A program made the translations under genes and the position numbers. From Paecilomyces variotii (taxonomy: Eukaryota), in the NCBI GenBank assembly GCA_004022145.1, contig RCNU01000003.1: a DNA stretch of 64,000 bases; one strand, 5' to 3'. The notes below the pieces were generated by a model. It was not told the DNA's origin. It was given only the letters and a program-made list of their open reading frames with translations, and searched no databases. Positions 18,966 to 60,266 of this stretch are shown in pieces; the first letter of the stretch is position 1; each line of letters opens with the position of its first letter.

Positions 18966-20830
18966 CTAATACGTCTCACCCAGATCACCCAGGCTCTGTT
19001 TGTGGTGCTCTCGGGGTGCCATATCGCTCCCTCGGCGAACCATGCCTGAGCTGATCTTCCGCGGTGTCGGTATGGCTGAGATCCCCCCGCTGGGTCGTTT
19101 CTTCAGCCCCGACATGGGGATGGATGTCCTGCCCCTGGTATCCTCCGTAAAGGTGCTTCTGCGGAAGGTAGGGGTGGTGATGTCGCTGATGCTGGTATCT
19201 CCATCTTCATCGATGTTCGTCATGCTAATATTGTGGCTGTGCGCCGTAGTACCTGTGTAGTTGCTGAGAGAAGACCGGGGCCGACGGCTCTCGGTCGTTG
19301 GGTTAGTGGAGTAGTGCCCGATCGGCGTCCTGGCAGTGGCGGCGCCATTGAAGCTGGCTGCACCATTGAAACTCTGCCGGCTATCGGGTCGTGGCGCTGG
19401 GATGCCGCTCGAGTACGTATGGCCGATCGAGCTGCGGCTGGAGAAGCTGGTCCGACTGCTGGGCCGACTGTCTCCTTGGGTGCGTGTGCCGACCGACTGT
19501 CGGCTCGGTGGGATATACGGGGTGCCGTCGCCGTGGACAGAAGAACTGAAGCTGCTGCCACTTGTGCGCTTCCTCGAAGACTTGCGCACCGTGATGTTAG
19601 AAGGAATAGGACTCTGTCCTGACACGGAGCCACGGGGAGAGGTCCTGCTAGGCGTATCCACAGGGGCGGGGAGTCTCGATCGGGCAGATTGCACTCGTTC
19701 CTCCAACTTCTGCATCTTCCCGATGAGGCCACGAATCTGGTATAGAGAACCCGATCGGGGAAGTCCCGCCGACTGGGAAGCACTGAATCGAGAGACGCTG
19801 GAGCGCGACGTGACTGACGGCGTCGACCGGCCATTGCTGAGCGGAATCGAAGGGGCTCGTGTGTGCCGGCTCCTGACCGGACGGCCACCCCTGTTCGATT
19901 CCGTCACAGATATACTGGGCTTTCTGAGACTGGTCGGTGCGCCGGGCTTGCGCAGGCTGGTGGATGACTCCGATATCGTGGGGGAAGGCGGAGTGACGGC
20001 ATCCGATGTGACGGACGACGCTGACTTGGCTGGAGGCGTTGCCATCGTAGGGGAAGAGGCTGTCGTGACGGGAGAGTGTTCGGACACATCGGGAGTCTTG
20101 GGGGCTCCATGGCTCGAGTCCAGAGGCGCTGGCCTGCGACGTCTCTGAGTGTTCGACTCAGCCTTGCGAAGCTTGTCTTGGACGATGTCAGCTTCGATCT
20201 TGAGATCAGACAGTTCATCACGAAGACGCTGAGTCTCTATCCGCAGAGACTCTCGTTCTTGCTCTCCGTTCTTGATCTCTTCCTCCAGCAGGACTCCGCG
20301 TTCGATCGCCATGTTGTATTTGGATTCCAGATCCTCTAGCGACGACGTGGTGTGTCGCGCCTGGCGTTCGAAATCATCGTTGGCCACTTCCATATCCCGC
20401 AGCCTCAACTGCAGTGCCCTGTTCGTTTCCCGTAGATTGGTGATCTCCTTCTGCAGGGTGTTCTGCACCGAGCTCGCTTCTGTCTTGGCCTGTTTGTACT
20501 TGGTCTGCAGCGAGATTAGCATCCATCCACCGCAAAGCGAGGCAAGCGATCCAGAGGGACCGCATCAAGCTCTGGGGAAGTTTCGATGATACCCACCTTC
20601 CATTCCTCGACCTCGTAGCGCAAGCTCTCTACCTTCTCCTTCAACTGTCGCTCCCGCTTCTCCGAGGCCTCGATATCCTTTTCCAACTCCGCCTCCAGTT
20701 CGCGACTGGAGGCTTGAAAGTCAGCCAGCTCGACCTCGAGCTGCTCATATTGCGACTTGTAATATGACAGCTCCTCTTCCGCAGAACCCGCCACATGGCG
20801 TGGTGAAGGGGTTCCATCGGTAGCCGGCAT
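18966..20830 (-). CDS. nudE: Nuclear distribution protein NudE (LIS1/NudF-interacting dynein regulator, ~590 aa)
   Basis: Exons 20830-20597 and 20504-18966. N-terminal coiled coil ELADFQASSRELEAELEKDIE...LRDMEVANDDFERQAR...ERGVLLEEE; C-terminal SLYQIRGLIGKMQKLEERVQSARSRL in a Ser/Pro-rich tail. Confidence 0.95.
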
Positions 20831-21745
20831 CGTTGGCTACGTCAGATGAATGCGCACGCAACGGGAGCCAGGGGAGAGGAAGGCGGTTGAACAGCACAGA
20901 CAGGCTCAAGAGCGAGATGCGATCGACGCAGGCGACATAAGAACACCGCCAGAAGTCCCGTCGTGGACGAAGGGGATGGCCGTGGTGACGGCGATGCACG
21001 TGGAACTGGTCCCAATAATGACCGGTTCGAGCGGTCCCTGGACACAATGCGGTGTCGCAAACGGCAGCTCTGAGGGCGTGCAGGAACGCTGGCGGTCAAG
21101 CAAGACGTTCCAGAAAACCTACCTTAGACGCTGAACCCCCTCGCTGGGGGTTGCTCTCGCGGTGTCGATGGCGGGGAGAGAGGGGTGTTCGATGGGCTGC
21201 GGTGCATCCCATGTCCAAGAAGTTCGTCGACCAGCTGGAGTGTTGATGTTTCCGTCGTCAGGGGCGCCTTGGCCTGAAACCGCCTAGCGCGGGACAGCTG
21301 CTCCATCTCTCTCCTCCACGCCTGCGCTTCTCGACGTGCGTACACCGAAGACAAGAGGTCTAGATACAACAGGCGATTCTCTGGGGGGATCTGGCTTTCT
21401 GGTAAGCTGTCTGTCTCTGCTGTGTTTCTCTGTCACTGCTACGCCCTCGCGCCGTCGTGTCCCTTTGGCCCCCCGTGTCATTCCGCAGCTCCGTCGGTGC
21501 TCTGCTCCACTGTTCTCTCTTCTGCTGGCTGCTCTCTATGTCCACGCACGATCTCCCCCATCCATCAGGCACCGATCTGATGCGATTCCTTCCACGCACT
21601 CGATATCTTCTATCACGATGCCCGTCCTATACCCCTCACAGATTGCGCTGTGCAGTGCAGAACGGAGCTTGATGAGAATGGTGATGCTGACGCGCTGCTC
21701 CGTCCAGAGCTTGCTCTGTCCCCGTTTCCTAGTTAACCGGCCGTC

Positions 21746-23135
21746 ATGGCTGACTCCGCGGATCTCAACCTCGACGCGCCAAGCGATCTTCAGGATATTC
21801 CTGATATGGCCATGGAGCTGATTCCACCGCCCGAAGGAACATTCCCCGATAAGTGAGTCCCCTCACTCGCCTCCCTCCGGTTCGCCGTACATGGTCCCGC
21901 ACGGTTCCTTCAAGGTTCAATGCGTAGACTGATCGGGTTGTGTTTTGTCTTTGATAGAGCTTCCCTGCTCGCCTCAGTCCAGGCCCACGGAAAAGCCCAC
22001 GGATACAACATCGTCGTGAAATCGTCGAGCACGCCAACGGAGAAGAAGCCGGGACGGACCGCAAAGATATGGCTGCGCTGCGATCGTGGTGGACAGTACC
22101 GGCCGCGGAACGGTCTCACCGAAGAGACTCGAAAGCGCAAGAGGACCTCCCGTCTCATGGACTGCCCGTTCATGCTAGTGGCAGCTGGGACGCCTGGGAT
22201 CTGGACATTAACGGTGCTGAATCCGACTCACAACCATGGCCCCGTCCTCGATAGGCCGCGCCATGTGCCACATCACAAAGTCAAGAAGGGCCAGATCACG
22301 GCAGTTCCCTATGATTGGCCGCACGATGCTACGATGACACCATTCACGACCGCACTGGTTATAATTGATATGCAGAAGGACTGTAAGTCTAGATCGGACG
22401 TGGGGTGGTTGCTCTATACGGCTCTTTGCTGACCGGCTGTTAGTCTGCAGTCCCGGCGGTTACATGGAGTATCAAGGCTACGACATCTCTGCCAACCAAG
22501 CTCTGATCCCAAAGCTGCAGCGGGTGCTCCATGCATTCCGCGCTTCTGGCTTTCCTATCTACCACACTCGCGAAGGTAGCATCTCATCGACATGCCCCAA
22601 TGAGAGCAAATGATTGCTGATGATCATACTAGGCCATCGCCCCGATCTCTCGACGCTACCAAGTCGAGAAAACTTTCGCTCCCGGAATAATGCCTCCGGC
22701 CTGGGGATCGGTGCTCAAGGGCCCTTGGGTCGCCTGTTGATTCGCGGGGAGGTTGGCCATGACACTGTTGATGAGCTGTATCCGCTCCCCGGGGAACCAG
22801 TCATCGATAAGCCCGGCCGCGGAGCGTTTCAATACACAGATTTTGAACTACTTCTGCGGAACAAAGGCGTCAAAAACCTTATTCTAGCAGGAGTGACGAC
22901 GGACGTCTGCGTTTCAACCACTATGAGAGAAGCCAACGATCGGGGATTCGACTGCTGCGTCCTCGAGGACGGTACTGCGGCAAGCGACCCATCACTGCAT
23001 CACAGCACGATCCAGTCGATAAAGATGGAGGGCGGCATCTTGGGTGCGGTTGCGAGGCTCGACGACGTCGTACAAGCCGTCGAAAACTTCAAAGCTGTCA
23101 CTGTGAAGAAGTTGGCTCCACAGATGACTTCTTAA
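21746..23135 (+). CDS. FAR1-type zinc DNA-binding domain fused to an isochorismatase-family cysteine hydrolase of biuret/guanylurea-hydrolase type (~388 aa)
   Basis: Exons 21746-21852, 21958-22382, 22444-22575 and 22633-23135 join in frame. N-domain HGYNIVVKSS..WLRCDRGG..TSRLMDCPF..NPTHNH. C-domain PYDWP, IIDMQKDFCSPGGY, HTREGHRPDL, IDKPGRGAF, GVTTDVCVSTTMREANDRGF, KMEGG. Confidence 0.9.
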
Positions 23136-23750
23136 CCGAAGAAGAAAAGGTGTTGTTTTCAACAATAATGATTTGATTTCCTCATCGAGAGGCATGGGTA
23201 ACGAGGTCTCTTCGGTGTTATTTTCTGTTTGGCGTTCCGGATCCATCGAAACAAGCGGGATATCTGGTCTTTGACTCTTCTGGCGGCCGTCAGTAATCGC
23301 GGCTGCGGAAGCGTACATTTTTTTCTTTTTCATATCTTCTTCGACTTCTACTTCTACCGATCACGATCACGATTTGAGCCACTTTCGATTCACCTTCTAG
23401 AGTTTATTTAGACACATGATACGTACACGGTATCTTATATTTTTGTTTATCTAATCCAGTCCTTTCCCTGGTGGAATTCTACCTCCTTGCCGTTTCTATA
23501 GGTCGTCCATTTTTTCTTTTTCTATTATTGACTTTCGAGTATTTCAACCGTATATGGTGGTGGGTATCATTCGCAGAAACATCTGCTCTCTAGGCGCTAA
23601 TCTAGCTTCCTCAAATCAAAACACATGATCACGACAACTCCCATAAAACGCCATGCACAGAAAACCAACCCCGCATCTCACCAACTTAGAAAAAGAAAAA
23701 AAAAAAAAAAAAAAGGAGAGAAGGCCAGCTTTGATACGCAATATCCCCAC

Positions 23751-24420
23751 TCACAACCACTTCCTCCCCGCCGCAGCAACTCTCGACCGAAACACCGGAC
23801 TCCGAATCTCTGTCCCCTGCTTATAAAACGGACTCATGACCGTCTTGACGTAATTCTCATACACTTCATTCAGGAATTGCCGGATCGCCTCCTCAGTCTG
23901 CGGAGACGTCGGGTTCGCAGCGATAGAAGTCGACGAGGCGCGCGAGCTGCTCCCGCCGCCGAGGGCGGAGGAAGACATGGAAGCGGCTAGGGAGGAGGAT
24001 GAGGAGGGGAGTTGGGGCGGTTGGTGAAGGAGGAGGAAGCGGGCGCCGGAGGGGGTGAGGAATGCGGAAATGTGTGCCGCGGTGGGTGGGTAGGTGTCGA
24101 TGTGTTTGAGGTACCTGTTTGTGGTTCGATATATGATCAGTTTGATATTCGAGAGAGAGAGAGAGGTTGAGGGTGAGGGGAGGGGGTGGATGGTAGGTCA
24201 TGCAAGACACAGTTCAGGGGACAACGTACATAGCACCATTCATCCATTGTACTTCCTCAACGACATCCAAACTGGAATGGATAATGAATTGATTCATATA
24301 TCGCGCCGTATCCGGGAAGCGGAATCGAGCAATGCCATCCCCGCCAGCTTTGGACGTGCCGAATGTGAGGGTGAAGAGCGGGACATCGGTCGGGGAGAGA
24401 ATGGTGAAGTAGTAGGACAT
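23751..24420 (-). CDS. TRS20: TRAPP complex subunit Trs20/sedlin (184 aa)
   Basis: Exons 24420-24230 and 24114-23751. MSYYFTILSPTDVPLF...NQFIIHSSLDVVEE..W...MYLKHID...ISAFLTPSGARFLLLH...IRQFLNEVYENYVKTVMSPFY. Confidence 0.93.
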
Positions 24421-24979
24421 TGTTGCGACTTCCCCTTTTGGGAAGGGGAGTTGAAACCTGATAGTCTGCACTGGAGGGTTTTCTTGGGAAAGAGATCAAG
24501 TCGTAATAGGAGCTGTTCTTTTAACGAGGCTCTTGTACCCTCAAATAGACGATAGTTAACTATTGACGTTCGGGTACTGAGAAGCTCGGACTAAGTTGTC
24601 GTTTAGTCTGGAGTAGATGGATCACGTGATACGGAGATAAGACTGGCGTTAACTATCAGCTCTGCTCATATCGACAATGTGACTCTGGTATTTTGAGTAT
24701 ATGTCAACAGAGGACAGCAGGTAAATAGTGAGATCTATGATGTGATAAGCCCTTAATTGAATTATTCTAGCTAAAGGACACAGACTCTGTGTGGTAGCAA
24801 CACTGTCCTTAGGGCTGTGTTCTACCTGCCCTAGTTACTACTATGAGTGTGACAAAAGCTATCGCGCCTAGCTATTATTCTAACCCCAATTGCTCAGTTC
24901 GTCATCGGATAATGGCGTATAATACGTATCATTATTACCACAGCAGTATCTAGGCTTATCAGGGTCGTTCTATCCGTTG

Positions 24980-26470
24980 TCAGCCTATGTTCAGGCGACG
25001 GAGTCCAAACTGGACACTCGGCTCAGACTCCTCTTCCTCTTCTTCCTCTTCCTCTTCTTCCTCTTCCTCTTCTTCGACTTCGTTTCTCCAAGACAAGCCA
25101 GCACCCGCCGGCCTATGGAAATCTGGGTCAAGATCCTCATCTGAAGCGTCGGCCGCCCCACTCATAGCAAGAACACGATGTAAAGTCCACTGGAGCTGGA
25201 GTAATTTAACCGATGGCAGAGGAAGTTTGACTGGATCCGTCGTACGGAAAGTGAGGACATCGCCAGACCTAATCTTCTCCTCAGTTGCGAGCCTGAATAG
25301 CTTGGCAGAAGGTATGCCGTCCCTGGTGCTGGAGATAAGATCGGGGGCAATAGGCGACGGAAGTCGGGTGATTGACTGGCTTTTACGATAATCCATTGTA
25401 TGCAGCCAAAAGAATTTCACGGTCAGGGTTGTTTCGTCATCGCTCAGCTGAAGTGGGTATAGAGCAAAACGAGCCTTTTCCCACAATTGATGGGCGATAT
25501 TACTGAAGCACATGAGATTGGCGCAATGCTCGGTTGCTTGAGGTCCCAGTACTTTGGCCTTCCAGGAGTTAATCTTTTCTAGTGTCCAGAAGTTAGACAG
25601 AGTTTCCCAAAACTGCTCCTGTTCTATCTTGCTCTTCTGACCCAGAGAAACAGGGTAGATATGTGCTATCTCTATCGGCTCTGTGAAACCAGTGATAAGG
25701 CAAGTAGAATCGTCTCATTTTTCGCATTAAGGTAGATTAGTAGATAGTTCGGACATGTTATAATAGTTTAAAATTACTAGCTTTCTGGCAGACTTCTTGC
25801 GAGCGGTACTAGTTTTGCTTGATGTTATGCTGGGCTTGGCCAAAGAAGTGGTCGCCTTCTGGGGGCTTGGTCCGGTGACTAGCTTGGGAATCTTTGATGG
25901 AGATTTTCCCATGGCATCAGCTTTTCTCTTCCGCCAAGTATCCACGCGGTGCACTAGATGGATGTGTGATACTCTCCCTGGCACGAATCCGACGTATTTC
26001 AAGGACTTCGACGCTCTCTTCCTCCATCGGGATGTCGAAGGTTTGGACGACATCAGGTTCGAAACCCCGTATTCTGACGGGCAGACAAATTGAAGAATTC
26101 ACAGGACTCGATGCTAAAAATAGTATGCACTCGGTATCAGATATTTCCAATCTCAGGAAGACTATATACTTTCGGATGTAGTCGATCACGAAGGCATACT
26201 AGCTTTGCGTCCCATATGTACCAGGTAGTAGTGGATGGAGCAATAACCCTCTGCTCCTTGCTGGATCAGCTTATCGGAGATCTTTCGCATAAGATCACGA
26301 AAGCTTTGGCATTCTTCCCCATCTGGGTTATCTCTATAAAGACCAGATCTCCATGAACTGCCACGCAAAGGTATAATTATATAAGAAGCTAGCAATGATA
26401 TATATATAGCATTGACAGGCTTAAGCTGCCCGGTGCTTGGATTCTCTAGCAAGCTCAGGATATTTATCCT
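24980..26470 (-). pseudogene. HNH-endonuclease (fungal HNH_2/Crinkler-type) pseudogene
   Basis: From 25726 the frame reads CEK*DDSTCLITG..EIAHIYPVSL..FW..W..TEHCANLMCFSNIAHQLWEKARFALYP..PLPSVKLLQLQWTLHRVLAMSGAA. There is an in-frame TGA at 25717-25715, the intron 25777-25727 ends in AA instead of AG, and the 5' part is broken across frames. The 5' boundary is approximate. Confidence 0.8.
25029..25075 (-). repeat. (GAA/GAG)n trinucleotide repeat encoding poly-Glu in the HNH tail
   Basis: tcctcttcctcttcttcc... on the + strand, EEEEEEEEEEEEEEEE in ORF 24980..25513. Confidence 0.9.
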
Positions 26471-28477
26471 CATGGGTGGAGCTCGCTAAGGAAAAGATGC
26501 GGGAAAGCTCCTGGCGCCTAGGTAGGGAGTTGCCGAGGGAAGGTATCAGGAGGAAGACTTAACCAGAGAGATAGAGTAGGTGAGAATAAAAGTGGTGAAT
26601 GATTTGGAGATAAAGGATTCACCGGGGATTTTACTAGACGTCTAGTAATGGGTGATAGACGAGATGATAATGTATTATGAATAGTATTGCTAGTAGCGTG
26701 AATATAGAACGCCTCTTTCCATCTATTTTGATATCTATCTGACCCAAAGACAGTAGCCACATATCATCACTTTCACTTGCGGAAGTTTCCACCGAGTAGG
26801 ATACTCATGTGTGAATATTTTGGGGAATGTTCATTTGAGGCCTGAAGGCGAAGGTATGACTGTTGTACCGAAAAGGAAGCCAATGCCATGATCCACAGAG
26901 ACTGGTAACTTGGTGTTTGGAGCCTTCGAGATATGAAATTTTCCAGGGCCCTTTACTGTGAAGTTAATAGTTAATGAAGATAGTTATACGACGGGATAAC
27001 AACCTATTCATTAGGATTAGAAAATCCTGGTACTGATCTTTAATTTGAAATGAGAGGGAGTCTGAAGGGAGAAAGTAAAATAAATTGCACATTGGGATCA
27101 ATGGTAAGGACCAGGGAATTGAACATAACTCACTAAGTTGACGTACTGGAATGTACTGCTGCAATAATCTTAAACAGTTCCGTGCCAGCCAACTTTCTTA
27201 ATCTACTAATTTCTTTCATAGGCTGTACACAATCATTATCTAATGGTCTGTTTTGGTATTTGTAACCATGTTGTGGCACGAAATATCTCCGTGACCTTTC
27301 AAGTACACAGTACTGTAAACCAGTAACTTTTATGTACCCCCAGCGGTCTCTCTGAGCCACATGTAAATTAAAGGTGATGGAACGGAGACTTTTAGCATGC
27401 AGGCCACTGGCAGTGCTATGGATAAAGAAAAATACCATTCCACCAATATACTCCTTGACGAGGTGATCACCAGCCAAACACCTCGTCAACAAGGATGCTA
27501 GCTAAGGCCTGCCGTGGCTGGGTACCGGGAGTAGAATCTACGCCATCCGGAAACAGTGGCCGTGGGAACTGGAATTTGCATCCATTTCTGTGGTATCTCA
27601 GTGGACAGTAGTACTCCGGTAAACTCTCACAATCTCTCATGTGCGTAACCAGGCCCCAAGCAGAAAGACATGCCCCTCGATGGTCAATTATTTGGATATA
27701 ACTGTAATCAAAGAGTAAGAACAAGAAGGTCACCTTAGATATCTTTGGCGCTGCCTAGCTAATACACGAGAGGACCGAGGCGTTAGTGTGTCTGGACAAC
27801 ATAGCTTGTCCTAAGGACGTAAAGGTTTAAACTATTATTGCAAACTTGCAGTAGATAGTGTACCGCCACCACTGGAAGGAGGGCCAAGATTCCCGATGCT
27901 TATTAGCGTTCTGGCGGCAATACTGTGGATGTAAACTTGGGTAAGGCAGTTTGCAGGTCCCATTGCAAAGTCCATGGTATTTAACAGTCATGGATTGCGG
28001 TATGTTAGACAATCAAAAGTGATGCTATCAAGAATGATTCAAGTGATCCATAACCGACTAGATACAGGGATTACCAAAGACCAGGCCAACGGGCCTGCGG
28101 GAGAATAATGGTGCATCATGGACCACGATGAGGTCCTCAGACCTCCAGGGCCAGCTGCGGAGCCTGACTCGTACGCGATTTTCGTGGCCAACTTAGCTAG
28201 CCACAGGTTATACCAAAAAAGATTATTCTTGCAGGTCGTTATTTCTCTCCTGGCCACAAGCCTATCAAAACTCGTCTGATAAGCTGTAGTTGTAGATCGG
28301 ATCGATTATCCACCGAGCAGGACATGCGTAAACTGTCGACGGCTTGTTTCAGATATCTCGATATCTAATAGATAGAGAAACGGAGTGAGTATTTATTTCT
28401 ACAGCGGGGGGCGCACTCCTAGTCCTCTTCCTTTCGATACGAAATCCAGAACGCCGACACTACAACGTTAACGCATC

Positions 28478-29314
28478 ATGACTACCACCACTGAGACCCT
28501 CACGCCGGAGAAACTCGCAGAGGCGAAAGCCAACTTCAAGAAGGATGGATTCGTGATAATCCCCAACGTGATCTCGACTGAGAAAGCCAAGGAGGTGCTG
28601 GATCGCCTCTGGAAGGCCCGAGATGAGAGCGAACGTCGAGGCGATCCGACCCATCTGGCATGGCTCGACCCCAACGAGAGTAACGTCCGTGTTTTCTATC
28701 TGATGAACCTGGACCCGATCTTCCTGGAATTGATTCAGCACCCGACCGCCATCCAGATAGTGAAGGCAGCTCTGGAATCGGATAATTTCCTCATTTCCAA
28801 CTTCACCGCCAACATCGCGCGACCGGGGTCCAAGTCCATGGGTCTGCATTCAGACCTCTCTCTGCAATGCCCCGCGCCTTGGGAGAAGACGTGGGCGGCC
28901 AATGTAATCTGGTGCATCACCGACATCTACGAGGAAAACGGAGCAACCATGTACATTCCCGGCAGTCACCAGTGGAAAACCCCAGACGACGTGATCAGTG
29001 GGGAAGAAGAAAAGAAATTATACAAGCCGTTCGAAGCCAAGGCTGGCTCCATCGTGGTCATGGACGGCCGCCTCTGGCATAATTCCGGCAGCAACGTCAC
29101 CAAGGACGTCGACCGAGCGCTTTTATTCGGGGCATACAATGCACCTTTCCTGCGCGGTCAGGTCAATTGGGCCGTGGGTCTCTCGGACGAGGTAAAGGCC
29201 ACTTTGAGCCCGCAGATGAGAGACTGGCTGGGAGTCAACCGGGATGGTAATCTTGGGGTGGTGACGGGAGAGAACGATGTCTTTAAAGAAGGGAAGGATG
29301 TTCCTCGAAATTAA
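28478..29314 (+). CDS. Phytanoyl-CoA dioxygenase (PhyH) family Fe(II)/2-oxoglutarate oxygenase (278 aa, intronless)
   Basis: FKKDGFVIIPNV, HxD motif GLHSD, ENGATMYIPGSH, AKAGSIVVMDGRLWHNSG.N....R facial triad and 2OG-binding Arg. Confidence 0.92.
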   Translation: MTTTTETLTPEKLAEAKANFKKDGFVIIPNVISTEKAKEVLDRLWKARDESERRGDPTHLAWLDPNESNVRVFYLMNLDPIFLELIQHPTAIQIVKAALESDNFLISNFTANIARPGSKSMGLHSDLSLQCPAPWEKTWAANVIWCITDIYEENGATMYIPGSHQWKTPDDVISGEEEKKLYKPFEAKAGSIVVMDGRLWHNSGSNVTKDVDRALLFGAYNAPFLRGQVNWAVGLSDEVKATLSPQMRDWLGVNRDGNLGVVTGENDVFKEGKDVPRN

Positions 29315-58217: not shown

Positions 58218-60266
58218 ATGTCCCGTCCACTTTCCCCCTCGGCCTCTCTTCCTCCAGATGACCCAATTCCGTCATATGGAGCGACAGGATATGAGGAGAG
58301 ATCTATGAAGAAGTCCCTGCTGGGACGGGTGGAACGATCGCATCGCAGTTGGCCGGGGATCAGAAAGATCCCGCTTCCTGCCATTGGGATCATAGCTCTC
58401 ATCGCGATAGTCAATGTTGTCGTGTGGATTGCTGCAGCCATTGTCTTGGTACGTCAGTTCTCTTGTTTATTGTTCAGTTCATGAAGTGCATTGTCCCGTT
58501 ATGTGTTATGATTTGACGATGTAGATATTTTATTTGGGATTATTTTTGGCTTATCTTACACTGTCATCCACCATTCACCATTTCTGATTATTTAATTTGT
58601 GATATGTTTTGTAGTACTGTTTCTTAATCACTGACAGATTATAACTAGCATTACTACACGTAAGTGCTACAATTTCGCAACAGACATGCATGTATGCATT
58701 TTTGGCCGGGAAAAGCTGAAGCCCGAACGGCTCTATCAGAAGCGACCAAAATTATTTGTTGGTGTGAACAAAGTTAATCTTTCTTCGTCTATAGTTCCTT
58801 GGTCTCTACTGCTGCCATCTCATACTCCCTTGGTCTGAGACACGCCCTCGATGCGGACCATATCTCGGTAAGAACCACCAGGATATGACTAATTCCGTGA
58901 TATATGCCTGACTTCATCTATCTGATCGATAGGCGATTGATTTGATGACGAGAAGGCTGCTCGCCACTGGACAGATGCCCGTCACCGTTGGGACTTTCTT
59001 TTCGTTGGGCCATTCCACGTAAGTATCGACATTTGCCGTGCTGCTCACTTCCCCGTATTGATAATCGATATCAGCATTGTCATTATCACCTCTATTGTCG
59101 TGGCAGCCACTGCTGCTGCAGTATCCTCGCGGTTCGACAGTTTCAGCACCATCGGCGGTATCATCGGCAGCTCCGTCAGCGCCGCCTTTCTCATCCTGCT
59201 GGGTATCATGAATGCGTACATCCTCTACAAGCTGTTTAAACAGATGCAAAAGGTTCTGAATCTGGGAGAAGGAGAGGAAGACGAGGCATGGAAGATTGAG
59301 GGAGGCGGGATCCTTTTTTCTTTGCTAAAGAAGATGTTCCGGCTGATTGATCGGTAAGTTTCTCTGTCCCTTCAAAGAGAAGTGTTTACATGTGCTGAAT
59401 AGAGTTTAGGCCCTGGAAAATGTATCCGTTGGGCGTGCTCTTCGGTCTCGGATTCGATACATCTTCGGAAATTGCACTGCTTGGAATCTCTTCCATTCAG
59501 GCAGCAAAGGGTACCGATTTCTGGGTGATCTTGATCTTCCCTATTCTCTTCACTGGTAGGGAACCCTTCAAGCTCGTTAATTATGATCATTGTAGGCTCC
59601 TTGCATTTCGATACTGAAAATCTTATAGCGGGCATGTGCCTCATCGACACCATGGACGGTGCTCTCATGCTGTCTCTATACGTCCAGCCTGCCGCAAACT
59701 TCCTTCCTAAAGCACGGAGATCCGACTCTGTAGGATCGTCCGACGTTATCGACGTTCATACAGAGGGGCCAAATCATTCCGCCAATCCTCGCGATCCAGT
59801 GGCTTTTCTATATTACTCCATTGTCCTCACTACCCTTACCGTTATCGTCGCCATTGTTATTGGTGTTATACAGCTGCTCACCATGATTCAAAACGTGGCG
59901 GAGCCGAAAGGTAAGTTTTGGGACGGTGTCGAGACGGCAGGAGACTATTACGATGTGATTGGCGGTTCTATCTGCGGATTGTTCCTTATATGTGGCCTAC
60001 TGAGCGTGGCCCTCTACAAACCGTGGAGAAGATGGTTTGGCAAGCGACATGGCCAAGCTGACATTGTGGACGAAGAGGGGTCATTGGATGGCGATGCGGG
60101 TGGTATCAGTAGGGTCGGTGGAGAGATCTCTACTACAACTACAGCCGGGGGGAATCTGCAGGAAGGTTCGGCAGCTGCAGATGCTGTTGGGAAGGGATCT
60201 GCAACGCAAGTCTCTGTGAAAGCTGCCAAGGGCGACCAGAGTGATCCGTTGATACCTGAAGTGTAA
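58218..60266 (+). CDS. nic1: High-affinity nickel/cobalt permease, NiCoT family (~487 aa)
   Basis: Seven exons join in frame: 58218-58448, 58649-58659, 58795-58867, 58933-59018, 59075-59353, 59410-59555 and 59629-60266. Signatures [52 protein letters not shown]. Confidence 0.95.

Follow-up and report, generated by a model that had tools for sequence, protein, structure and literature searches.

A Mutator-related finger fused to an isochorismatase-like hydrolase in Paecilomyces variotii: a candidate regulator whose catalytic cysteine has been lost in some relatives

A fusion between a WRKY-GCM1 finger and an isochorismatase domain has been described in filamentous fungi, with the catalytic domain proposed to act as a small-molecule sensor (Babu 2006, PMC1702500), and apparently no later work has taken it up. 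Here we analyze such a fusion gene of Paecilomyces variotii, located at positions 21746 to 23135 of a 64,000-nucleotide stretch of contig RCNU01000003.1 (this whole stretch is called the window). The architecture and the sensor proposal are the same as those of 2006; in the portions of that paper available to us, the fusion takes up two sentences that give no substrate class, range, catalytic losses, or counterpart with an HxC finger, and we infer that the example protein named there belongs to the present family. A sequence-only reading of the locus had put forward both the architecture and the idea of an enzyme-derived sensor; the fusion is real, but both were published in 2006. That reading knew of no functional characterization, and a literature search, with most subscription papers outside it, likewise found no functional study and Babu 2006 as the sole mention. 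Within the same limits, no mention was found of the catalytic losses or of the lichen family described below. The substrate class, the repeated catalytic loss, and a second fusion with a Mutator finger appear to be new, the architecture being already known.

Our preferred reading, to which we assign a probability of roughly 0.5, is that the protein is a one-component DNA-binding regulator whose hydrolase domain would dimerize and bind a guanylurea-like ligand, with catalysis optional. That it regulates by binding DNA, with the hydrolase as either a ligand sensor or a scaffold, we consider probable. In eukaryotes, one-component regulators that combine an enzyme with a DNA-binding domain are uncommon. 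Enzyme folds that couple a metabolite to transcription, some of them catalytically dead, include yeast Gal3, fungal NmrA, and bacterial PutA and BirA; these have other folds, whereas the DNA-binding part of the fusion is transposon-derived and its live and dead orthologues coexist. The fusion is conserved through Aspergillus, Penicillium, Talaromyces, and Onygenales, where it is annotated merely as an isochorismatase or RutB-like hydrolase. Its natural live and dead versions allow catalysis to be separated from regulation, and the targets of such a regulator would point to the natural substrate of guanylurea-type hydrolases.

Three described hydrolases are the closest to the enzyme domain. Biuret hydrolase BiuH of Rhizobium leguminosarum 3841 (PDB 6AZO/6AZQ, PMC5806882) shares the fold, the catalytic triad, and equivalents of F41, Y47, Y53, T171, D173, and V174, but its Gln215, Lys145, Ser147, and Val218 are Glu, Arg, Ala, and Ile in the fusion protein, which also scores under the NCBIfam cut-off for BiuH, falls in a separate clade, and carries an N-terminal finger. 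The guanylurea hydrolase of plasmid pMET-2 (BB_00025) has Glu at the Gln215 site, the PLGRLLIRGE and GAF motifs, and 53–54% identity to the fusion protein, and it groups with the fungal clade in the best tree obtained, which is only slightly better than one that places it beside BiuH; it differs in a Tyr at the Lys145 site and in being a stand-alone bacterial enzyme. Triuret hydrolase TrtA (PDB 6XIX, PMC7948467) has the same fold (Z 32.7), and its Ala134 and Ile205 have equivalents, but the fusion protein is without its F35, N41, E160, Y187, and Q202, and identity is 43–44%. On the side of the finger, yeast Aft1/Aft2, Candida Rbf1, Aspergillus nidulans VipA, and plant FHY3/FAR1/FRF share an insert-containing WRKY-GCM1 domain derived from Mutator-like elements (MULEs); in the portions of the literature available to us, none of them is described with an enzyme domain. 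The fungal FAR1-like VipA binds a promoter, according to a second-hand account in the part of the source consulted (PMC6000157).

The features of the gene on which the argument depends are as follows, in window coordinates.

21746..23135, plus strand: coding span of the fusion gene, 388 residues, four coding exons, one open reading frame (ORF)
21824..22243, plus strand: insert-containing WRKY-GCM1/FAR1-type domain, residues 27–131 (Pfam FAR1/AFT, Aft2 fold match)
22295..23084, plus strand: isochorismatase-like cysteine hydrolase, residues 149–372, in a Glu-type fungal clade that neighbors BiuH and GuuH
22908..22910, plus strand: codon of catalytic Cys314, intact here and replaced in 9 of 47 aligned orthologues
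23028..23030, plus strand: codon of Glu354, at the position of BiuH Gln215 and TrtA Gln202; the guanylurea hydrolase of pMET-2 also has Glu here

Finger and hydrolase domains

By sequence comparison and structural model, the N-terminal domain is a WRKY-GCM1/FAR1-type CCHH finger, related to those of Mutator transposases and predicted to bind DNA. Pfam FAR1 (PF03101, cut-off 28.1) scores 28.4 bits on a 99-residue piece of exon 2, 26.9 on exon 2, and 24.1 on the whole protein, and AFT matches the finger more weakly; across fused members the FAR1 score spans 24–32 bits, and one of seven scanned passes the cut-off (P0053, 31.9). The predicted zinc ligands C77, C105, H127, and H129 (C..C..HxH; codons starting at 22079, 22163, 22229, and 22235) are each retained in 46 of 47 aligned rows. 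The two cysteines enclose a basic insert (residues 78–104; 27 residues, nine of them K/R, with the stretch RKRKR) that is nearly invariant, as are the strand residues. Ahead of the finger lies a conserved acidic tail (residues 1–26; seven D/E and no K/R) with low predicted local distance difference test (pLDDT) values. In the AlphaFold model of the fusion protein (pLDDT 82), a helix at residues 36–50 is followed by four strands, the whole spanning 36–124. In the parts of Babu 2006 (PMC1702500) available to us, an insert of 20–70 residues between the cysteines and a helix ahead of strand 1 are given as family traits, and basic inserts in this finger family are suggested to contact DNA. The KRKR stretch had been read as resembling a nuclear localization signal; since it sits in the basic insert typical of the family, it is not independent evidence for such a signal.

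The fold and origin of the finger agree with this assignment. In a VIA-align comparison of model residues 27–133 with 48,161 chains, the best non-hydrolase match was yeast Aft2 bound to DNA (4lmg), with a moderate Z of 8.3, a root-mean-square deviation (rmsd) of 2.5, 74 aligned residues, and 23% identity, as would be expected of the FAR1/WRKY-like fold that had been proposed. The Aft2 binding site is not transferable to the finger because identity is just 23% over those 74 residues. The Aft2 match is in line with the sequence evidence and with an Atlas score of 0.91. Foldseek with the whole model returned hydrolases alone among the matches listed, with no finger match, and the finger folded alone from its single sequence reached a pLDDT of 44. 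A search for the fusion gave 57 matches among 339 candidates, of which 56 are the fusion gene or its fragments. The sole non-fusion, and the closest non-fusion match to the finger, is a MULE transposase (P0057, E 1.3e-8) that exceeds the cut-off for the transposase core PF10551. A Mutator origin of the finger is therefore supported, and the transposase-derived WRKY-GCM1/FAR1 domain named in the sequence-only reading is supported by the borderline Pfam matches, the Aft2 fold, the Atlas, and P0057.

An N-terminal domain that does not bind DNA, but acts as a protein-interaction or metal-sensing module controlling or localizing the hydrolase, would be consistent with the borderline FAR1 scores across members and with a Z value near the level common for unrelated folds. 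The near invariance of the basic insert and strand residues and the DNA-bound state of the best non-hydrolase match among the 48,161 chains argue against such a module, which also leaves the dead hydrolases described below unexplained. We regard it as quite improbable.

The C-terminal domain matches Isochorismatase (PF00857) at 138 bits (cut-off 27). Residues D173, K281 (codons starting at 22367 and 22809), and C314 align with the BiuH triad D36, K142, and C175, so the D-K-C triad is intact, as had been reported from the letters. The attribution of its motifs to BiuH holds in part. Rhizobium BiuH is the closest solved relative (E 1e-79; rmsd 1.1, TM (template modeling) 0.95 of target, 54% identity) and the motifs are BiuH-like, but the score to the NCBIfam model of BiuH (NF050097) is 292.7 bits against a cut-off of 370 (247.9 and 279.8 in two other members), and E354 and R284 occupy the sites of BiuH Gln215 and Lys145. 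In the parts of the BiuH study available to us, the Q215E variant has a kcat/KM on biuret of 115 versus 149,742, and K145R is effectively inactive (PMC5806882). Judged by score and residues, the fusion hydrolase is not a BiuH, and it is unlikely to act on biuret. The fusion hydrolase does not fit the triuret hydrolase TrtA either: two of seven residues (F35, N41, E160, Y187, I205, A134, and Q202) are matched, by I357 and A286; the remaining sites carry Y184, Y190, D312, S339, and E354.

A guanylurea-like ligand appears better founded than biuret. Among fungal rows, 42 of 43 fused and 43 of 43 stand-alone proteins carry Glu at the Gln215 site, as does the cysteine hydrolase encoded on pMET-2. 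Gln and Lys occupy the Gln215 and Lys145 sites in 80 of the 80 best bacterial loci listed in a GTDB scan, and no Glu-type bacterial relative is among those 80 matches. We take Glu at this position to be the signature of the guanylurea hydrolase GuuH, a status that it is said to have been given by Tassoulas in 2021. In a tree of 69 rows, the fungal enzymes group in one clade (100/97) separate from that of BiuH (98/97), and the pMET-2 guanylurea hydrolase stands beside BiuH (97/81, long branch). A constrained tree that joins the pMET-2 enzyme to the fungi is 4.3 log-likelihood units better than the free tree (p 0.59 in the approximately unbiased [AU] test), a slight gain which suggests that the free search was not optimal. 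As far as the available part of the source goes, BB_00025, encoded on pMET-2, a plasmid from Pseudomonas mendocina MET, is an assayed guanylurea hydrolase (PMC9800807); the sequence used here (L001:2821-3456) is taken as BB_00025 because it is the only match on pMET-2 and lies beside the deaminase named in that paper.

Among 80 loci listed from metagenomes, four are Glu-type bacterial loci. In the two examined, the hydrolase (L175:4040-5459 and L164:180-1573) directly follows a creatininase-family amidohydrolase gene and is then followed by a metallo-beta-lactamase-fold gene and ABC (ATP-binding cassette) transporter genes, which suggests a cyclic-amidine pathway; the creatininase-family gene ahead of the hydrolase fits amidine substrates. 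A search for guanidine riboswitches near Glu-type bacterial homologues gave no Rfam matches in six sources.

Loss of the catalytic cysteine and the regulator model

Orthologues were aligned from 47 of the 57 matches, nine fragments and the transposase being excluded. Nine of the 47 have Ala, Gly, or Ser at the position of C314. The finger of these nine remains 87–93% identical, and identity of the hydrolase is down to 61–77%. Cluster members show a fixed loss throughout Trichophyton/Microsporum/Nannizzia, Coccidioides/Emydomyces, and Monascus; in Myotisia the Asp and Lys of the triad are lost as well. More generally, the finger is more conserved than the hydrolase in 38 of 41 full-length rows (medians of 90% versus 78%). 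In a 120-row set (43 FAR1-fused, one HxC-fused, 43 stand-alone, 16 exon fragments, and 17 two-domain algal types), the cysteine is missing from 8 of 44 finger-fused rows versus 0 of 43 stand-alone fungal rows (Fisher p 0.0055, related sequences included). The dead state needs four changes on the tree. Residue E354 is retained in seven of seven dead FAR1 fusions, and K281 and R284 are mostly retained too. A dermatophyte-type contig (L104) bears a dead gene with the exon layout of the window and keeps the downstream neighbor and two further window genes; because exon layout and neighbors match, this is the orthologous locus. On these alignments, catalysis is dispensable in several lineages and the finger is not. 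The regulator reading gains support from the repeated loss of the cysteine.

In the regulator that we propose, a domesticated Mutator finger would have joined a fungal Glu-type amidohydrolase early in the history of Eurotiomycetes. The hydrolase domains may dimerize by analogy with BiuH and thus pair two fingers on DNA; in the BiuH dimer, as given in the portion of the study consulted, the neighboring subunit supplies Gln215, the equivalent of E354 (PMC5806882). The pocket would bind a small amidino-urea, guanylurea-like and not biuret, and binding or turnover of this ligand would change DNA binding or the exposure of the conserved acidic N-terminal tail. Versions with C314 intact, as in P. 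variotii, would probably also hydrolyze their own signal, and those that lost the cysteine would be pure sensors.

A DNA-binding regulator could also use its hydrolase only as a dimer or tetramer scaffold, with any enzyme activity moonlighting and no control by a ligand. Proteins of the BiuH fold are dimers or tetramers in the descriptions available to us, pocket residues are altered in dead orthologues, the lichen family is without both the Cys and the Glu, and E354 lies at the BiuH subunit interface, so its conservation can be structural. Against a mere scaffold, K281, R284, and E354 are mostly kept in the dead FAR1 fusions, and the nucleophile is kept in 38 of 47 fusions across the whole class. 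We rate a scaffold without ligand control as rather unlikely.

The intact triad of the P. variotii fusion would also suit a guanylurea-type metabolic or detoxifying hydrolase that is held at chromatin or in the nucleus, for instance to remove products of guanine oxidation, and has no role in transcription. Eurotiales and Onygenales rows of the 120-row set include no stand-alone copy, and a search of the species' own genome found a single fusion copy and no stand-alone close paralogue, so the fusion may be the sole such enzyme. Elsewhere in the genome are a DUF1989 gene and one resembling urea carboxylase, which could handle guanidine, and oxidized guanine has been proposed as a guanidine source, as a hypothesis in the part of a review available to us (PMC12623156). 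However, a dead enzyme has no need of a tether, and dead orthologues at the same locus nevertheless have fingers that are 87–93% identical; conservation of the finger also exceeds that of the enzyme that it would serve. An enzyme that is only tethered is thus, in our judgment, unlikely.

Several observations weigh against a ligand-sensing regulator. The majority of fusions (38 of 47), including that of P. variotii, keep the nucleophile, which also fits a plain enzyme. Dead members alter the pocket residues F178, T310, and V313, and E354 is lost in the lichen family; both fit a scaffold as well as a sensor. The contrast of 8 of 44 with 0 of 43 rows (Fisher p 0.0055) counts related sequences. 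The AU test allows a single clade for the dead FAR1 fusions (p 0.12) and likewise for FAR1 and HxC fusions together (p 0.21), so how many events were independent is not proven. The guanylurea link depends on a single assayed enzyme, identified by context. Three last-exon ORFs (P0112, P0142, and P0147) lack the cysteine, and their N-termini are not in the retrieved sequence. Around the gene, no nitrogen gene cluster was seen among window ORFs of at least 170 residues inspected by eye, and just one GATA site lies upstream.

Range of the fusion and a second family of finger fusions

The sequence-only reading allowed that the fusion may be widespread in ascomycetes, but it looks narrower. Of the 57 matches, 41 carry an organism name, and all 41 we take to be Eurotiomycetes (Eurotiales, Onygenales, Pyrenula, and Phaeomoniella), and in a full HMMER search one representative matches across both domains among the top 150 listed. 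Stand-alone hydrolases occur in Dothideomycetes, Leotiomycetes, Chaetothyriales, and Laetiporus. Because the range rests on word-limited searches or on the best matches listed, absence of the fusion elsewhere is weak evidence. On the tree, one clade (96/87) unites 25 of the 26 fused rows, and placing all 26 together is not rejected (p 0.21).

The same hydrolase stands behind a different finger in P0254 (Heterodermia) and nine relatives (10 matches among 18 candidates). Named members of this lichen family are Heterodermia and Dirinaria, with Physcia added from the cluster listing; the family ids are P0254, P0069, P0285–P0292, P0358, and P0359. The finger has C-x5-C and HxC motifs in 10 of 10, and the pattern C-x5-C...HxC is, in the available part of Babu 2006 (PMC1702500), that of the HxC family of MULE transposases. 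Its match to PF03108 (E 0.019, 15.1 bits) is under the cut-off of 25, and an Atlas score of 0.89 to PF03108 clusters is a lead only. The equivalents of the catalytic Cys and of Glu354 are both missing in seven of seven members that reach the site, and the hydrolases form a separate clade (100/100). When the FAR1-type finger was compared with the lichen type, profile against profile, no similarity was detected (probability 0.2%, with shallow profiles), and no lichen-type finger was among 80 metagenome loci listed, mostly bacterial. The two families may have arisen by two independent captures, by one fusion and then a finger swap, or by extreme divergence.

We tentatively suggest, with more doubt than confidence, that Glu-type amidohydrolases may have been recruited at least twice behind transposon fingers (FAR1 in Eurotiomycetes, HxC/MuDR in lichens, and perhaps a BED-like finger in a dothideomycete), with the enzyme then repeatedly dying and a guanylurea-like signal possibly coming from oxidized guanine. 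If this is true, living forms span the steps from enzyme through enzyme-regulator to pure sensor, and the regulon would reveal an unrecognized natural guanylurea-like signal. Whether a single metabolic enzyme captured transposon fingers repeatedly could be tested in the lichen family.

Other forms of the hydrolase were encountered in these searches. Residues 1–59 of P0260 (Dothideomycetes sp. NU457) form a CxxC...H...C N-terminus on a live hydrolase of the clade; this N-terminus had no Pfam match and resembles a BED zinc finger, seen in a single sequence that is a cluster of one. P0112, P0142, and P0147 are of the hydrolase clade and have Ser in place of Cys and long Ser/Thr/Pro-rich tails. 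Tandem BiuH-like and TrtA-like domains are found in algal and other proteins (P0058, P0060, and P0211–P0227; 17 of 120 rows). Penicillium verhagenii and P. herquei have the fusion in two divergent copies each (P0049–P0052), with fingers 68–71% identical, in contrast to the one copy detected in P. variotii. P0351, a 219-residue protein labeled Fusarium, comes from a contig of 877 bases, belongs to the Talaromyces cluster, and is probably contamination. The P. variotii genome has a second isochorismatase-like hydrolase, with Ser at the Gln215 site, in a 777-residue intronless frame (L007:82-2415, minus strand; G000:C1 near 3253123), the other part of which we take, from motifs read by eye, to be amidase-like and similar to allophanate hydrolase.

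Gene structure, transcripts, and neighborhood

The coding exons and introns of the fusion gene, with an additional upstream intron, are arranged as follows.

21402..21707, plus strand: 5' untranslated-region intron of 306 nucleotides, GT-AG, in run X5 only (one of four runs); the upstream non-coding exon ends at 21401
21746..21852, plus strand: exon 1, which encodes the conserved acidic tail and the beginning of the finger
21853..21957, plus strand: intron 1, GT-AG, skipped in contigs X4 and X5
21958..22382, plus strand: exon 2, finger core, linker, and hydrolase start, with the domain junction and D173 inside
22383..22443, plus strand: intron 2, GT-AG, skipped in contigs X4 and X5
22444..22575, plus strand: exon 3, pocket-lid residues F178, Y184, and Y190
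22576..22632, plus strand: intron 3, GT-AG, skipped in contigs X4 and X5
22633..23135, plus strand: exon 4, K281, R284, C314, E354, and stop

The fusion is confirmed as one real gene and not a chance juxtaposition. Four runs were compared, their status as RNA being a software guess. The X4 and X5 contigs, from two studies, skip exactly the three coding introns and span both domains, and X1 and X15 contigs are unspliced over the gene. Continuity of the X5 contig alone is not proof of one transcript, because that contig extends into the neighboring gene; a single transcript follows from an intron-free domain junction and a conserved single frame. The end of the finger and the hydrolase start motif PYDWP (at 22307, after the finger) both lie within exon 2. 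The spliced ORF joining finger to hydrolase, the position of its junction, and every motif listed in the sequence-only reading were thus recovered in the four-exon, 388-residue frame, and spliced contigs carry both domains together. The protein is identical at 387 of 388 residues to P0001, also of P. variotii, the sole difference being at residue 345.

Nor is the fusion gene a Mutator or MULE transposon. P0001 has no transposase core (PF10551), no terminal or long inverted repeats were found in 20800–24000, P0057 as a genome query matched only the finger of the fusion gene in a lower-bound search, and the neighbors are housekeeping genes. A wrong gene model, or a decaying transposon fragment beside a hydrolase gene, might be suspected from the nearest non-fusion match of the finger being a transposase with PF10551 above cut-off. 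Such an artefact is at odds with a junction within exon 2, with spliced contigs that span both domains, and with conservation of the fusion across the class, as well as with the lack of repeats and of further P0057 matches, and we consider it vanishingly improbable.

Two genes flank the fusion gene.

18966..20831, minus strand: nudE, divergent upstream neighbor (Pfam NUDE_C)
23751..24495, minus strand: convergent downstream neighbor, with a counterpart beside the gene in L104 by tblastx

The downstream neighbor we take to be Sedlin/TRS20-like, and an acetyl-CoA carboxylase gene is also among the neighbors (Pfam). The fusion gene and nudE are divergent from a short shared upstream region (21172–21401) and are joined in the X5 contig. 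Beyond the downstream neighbor are frames that we take to be HNH-endonuclease-like (24980–25714, minus strand) and a PhyH-like dioxygenase (28472–29314, plus strand); these two frames separate neighbors that are adjacent in L104, which points to insertions or rearrangement in this block of the window. A frame at 59535–60263 (plus strand), 36 kb from the fusion gene, presumably encodes a protein resembling nickel permease and is probably unrelated.

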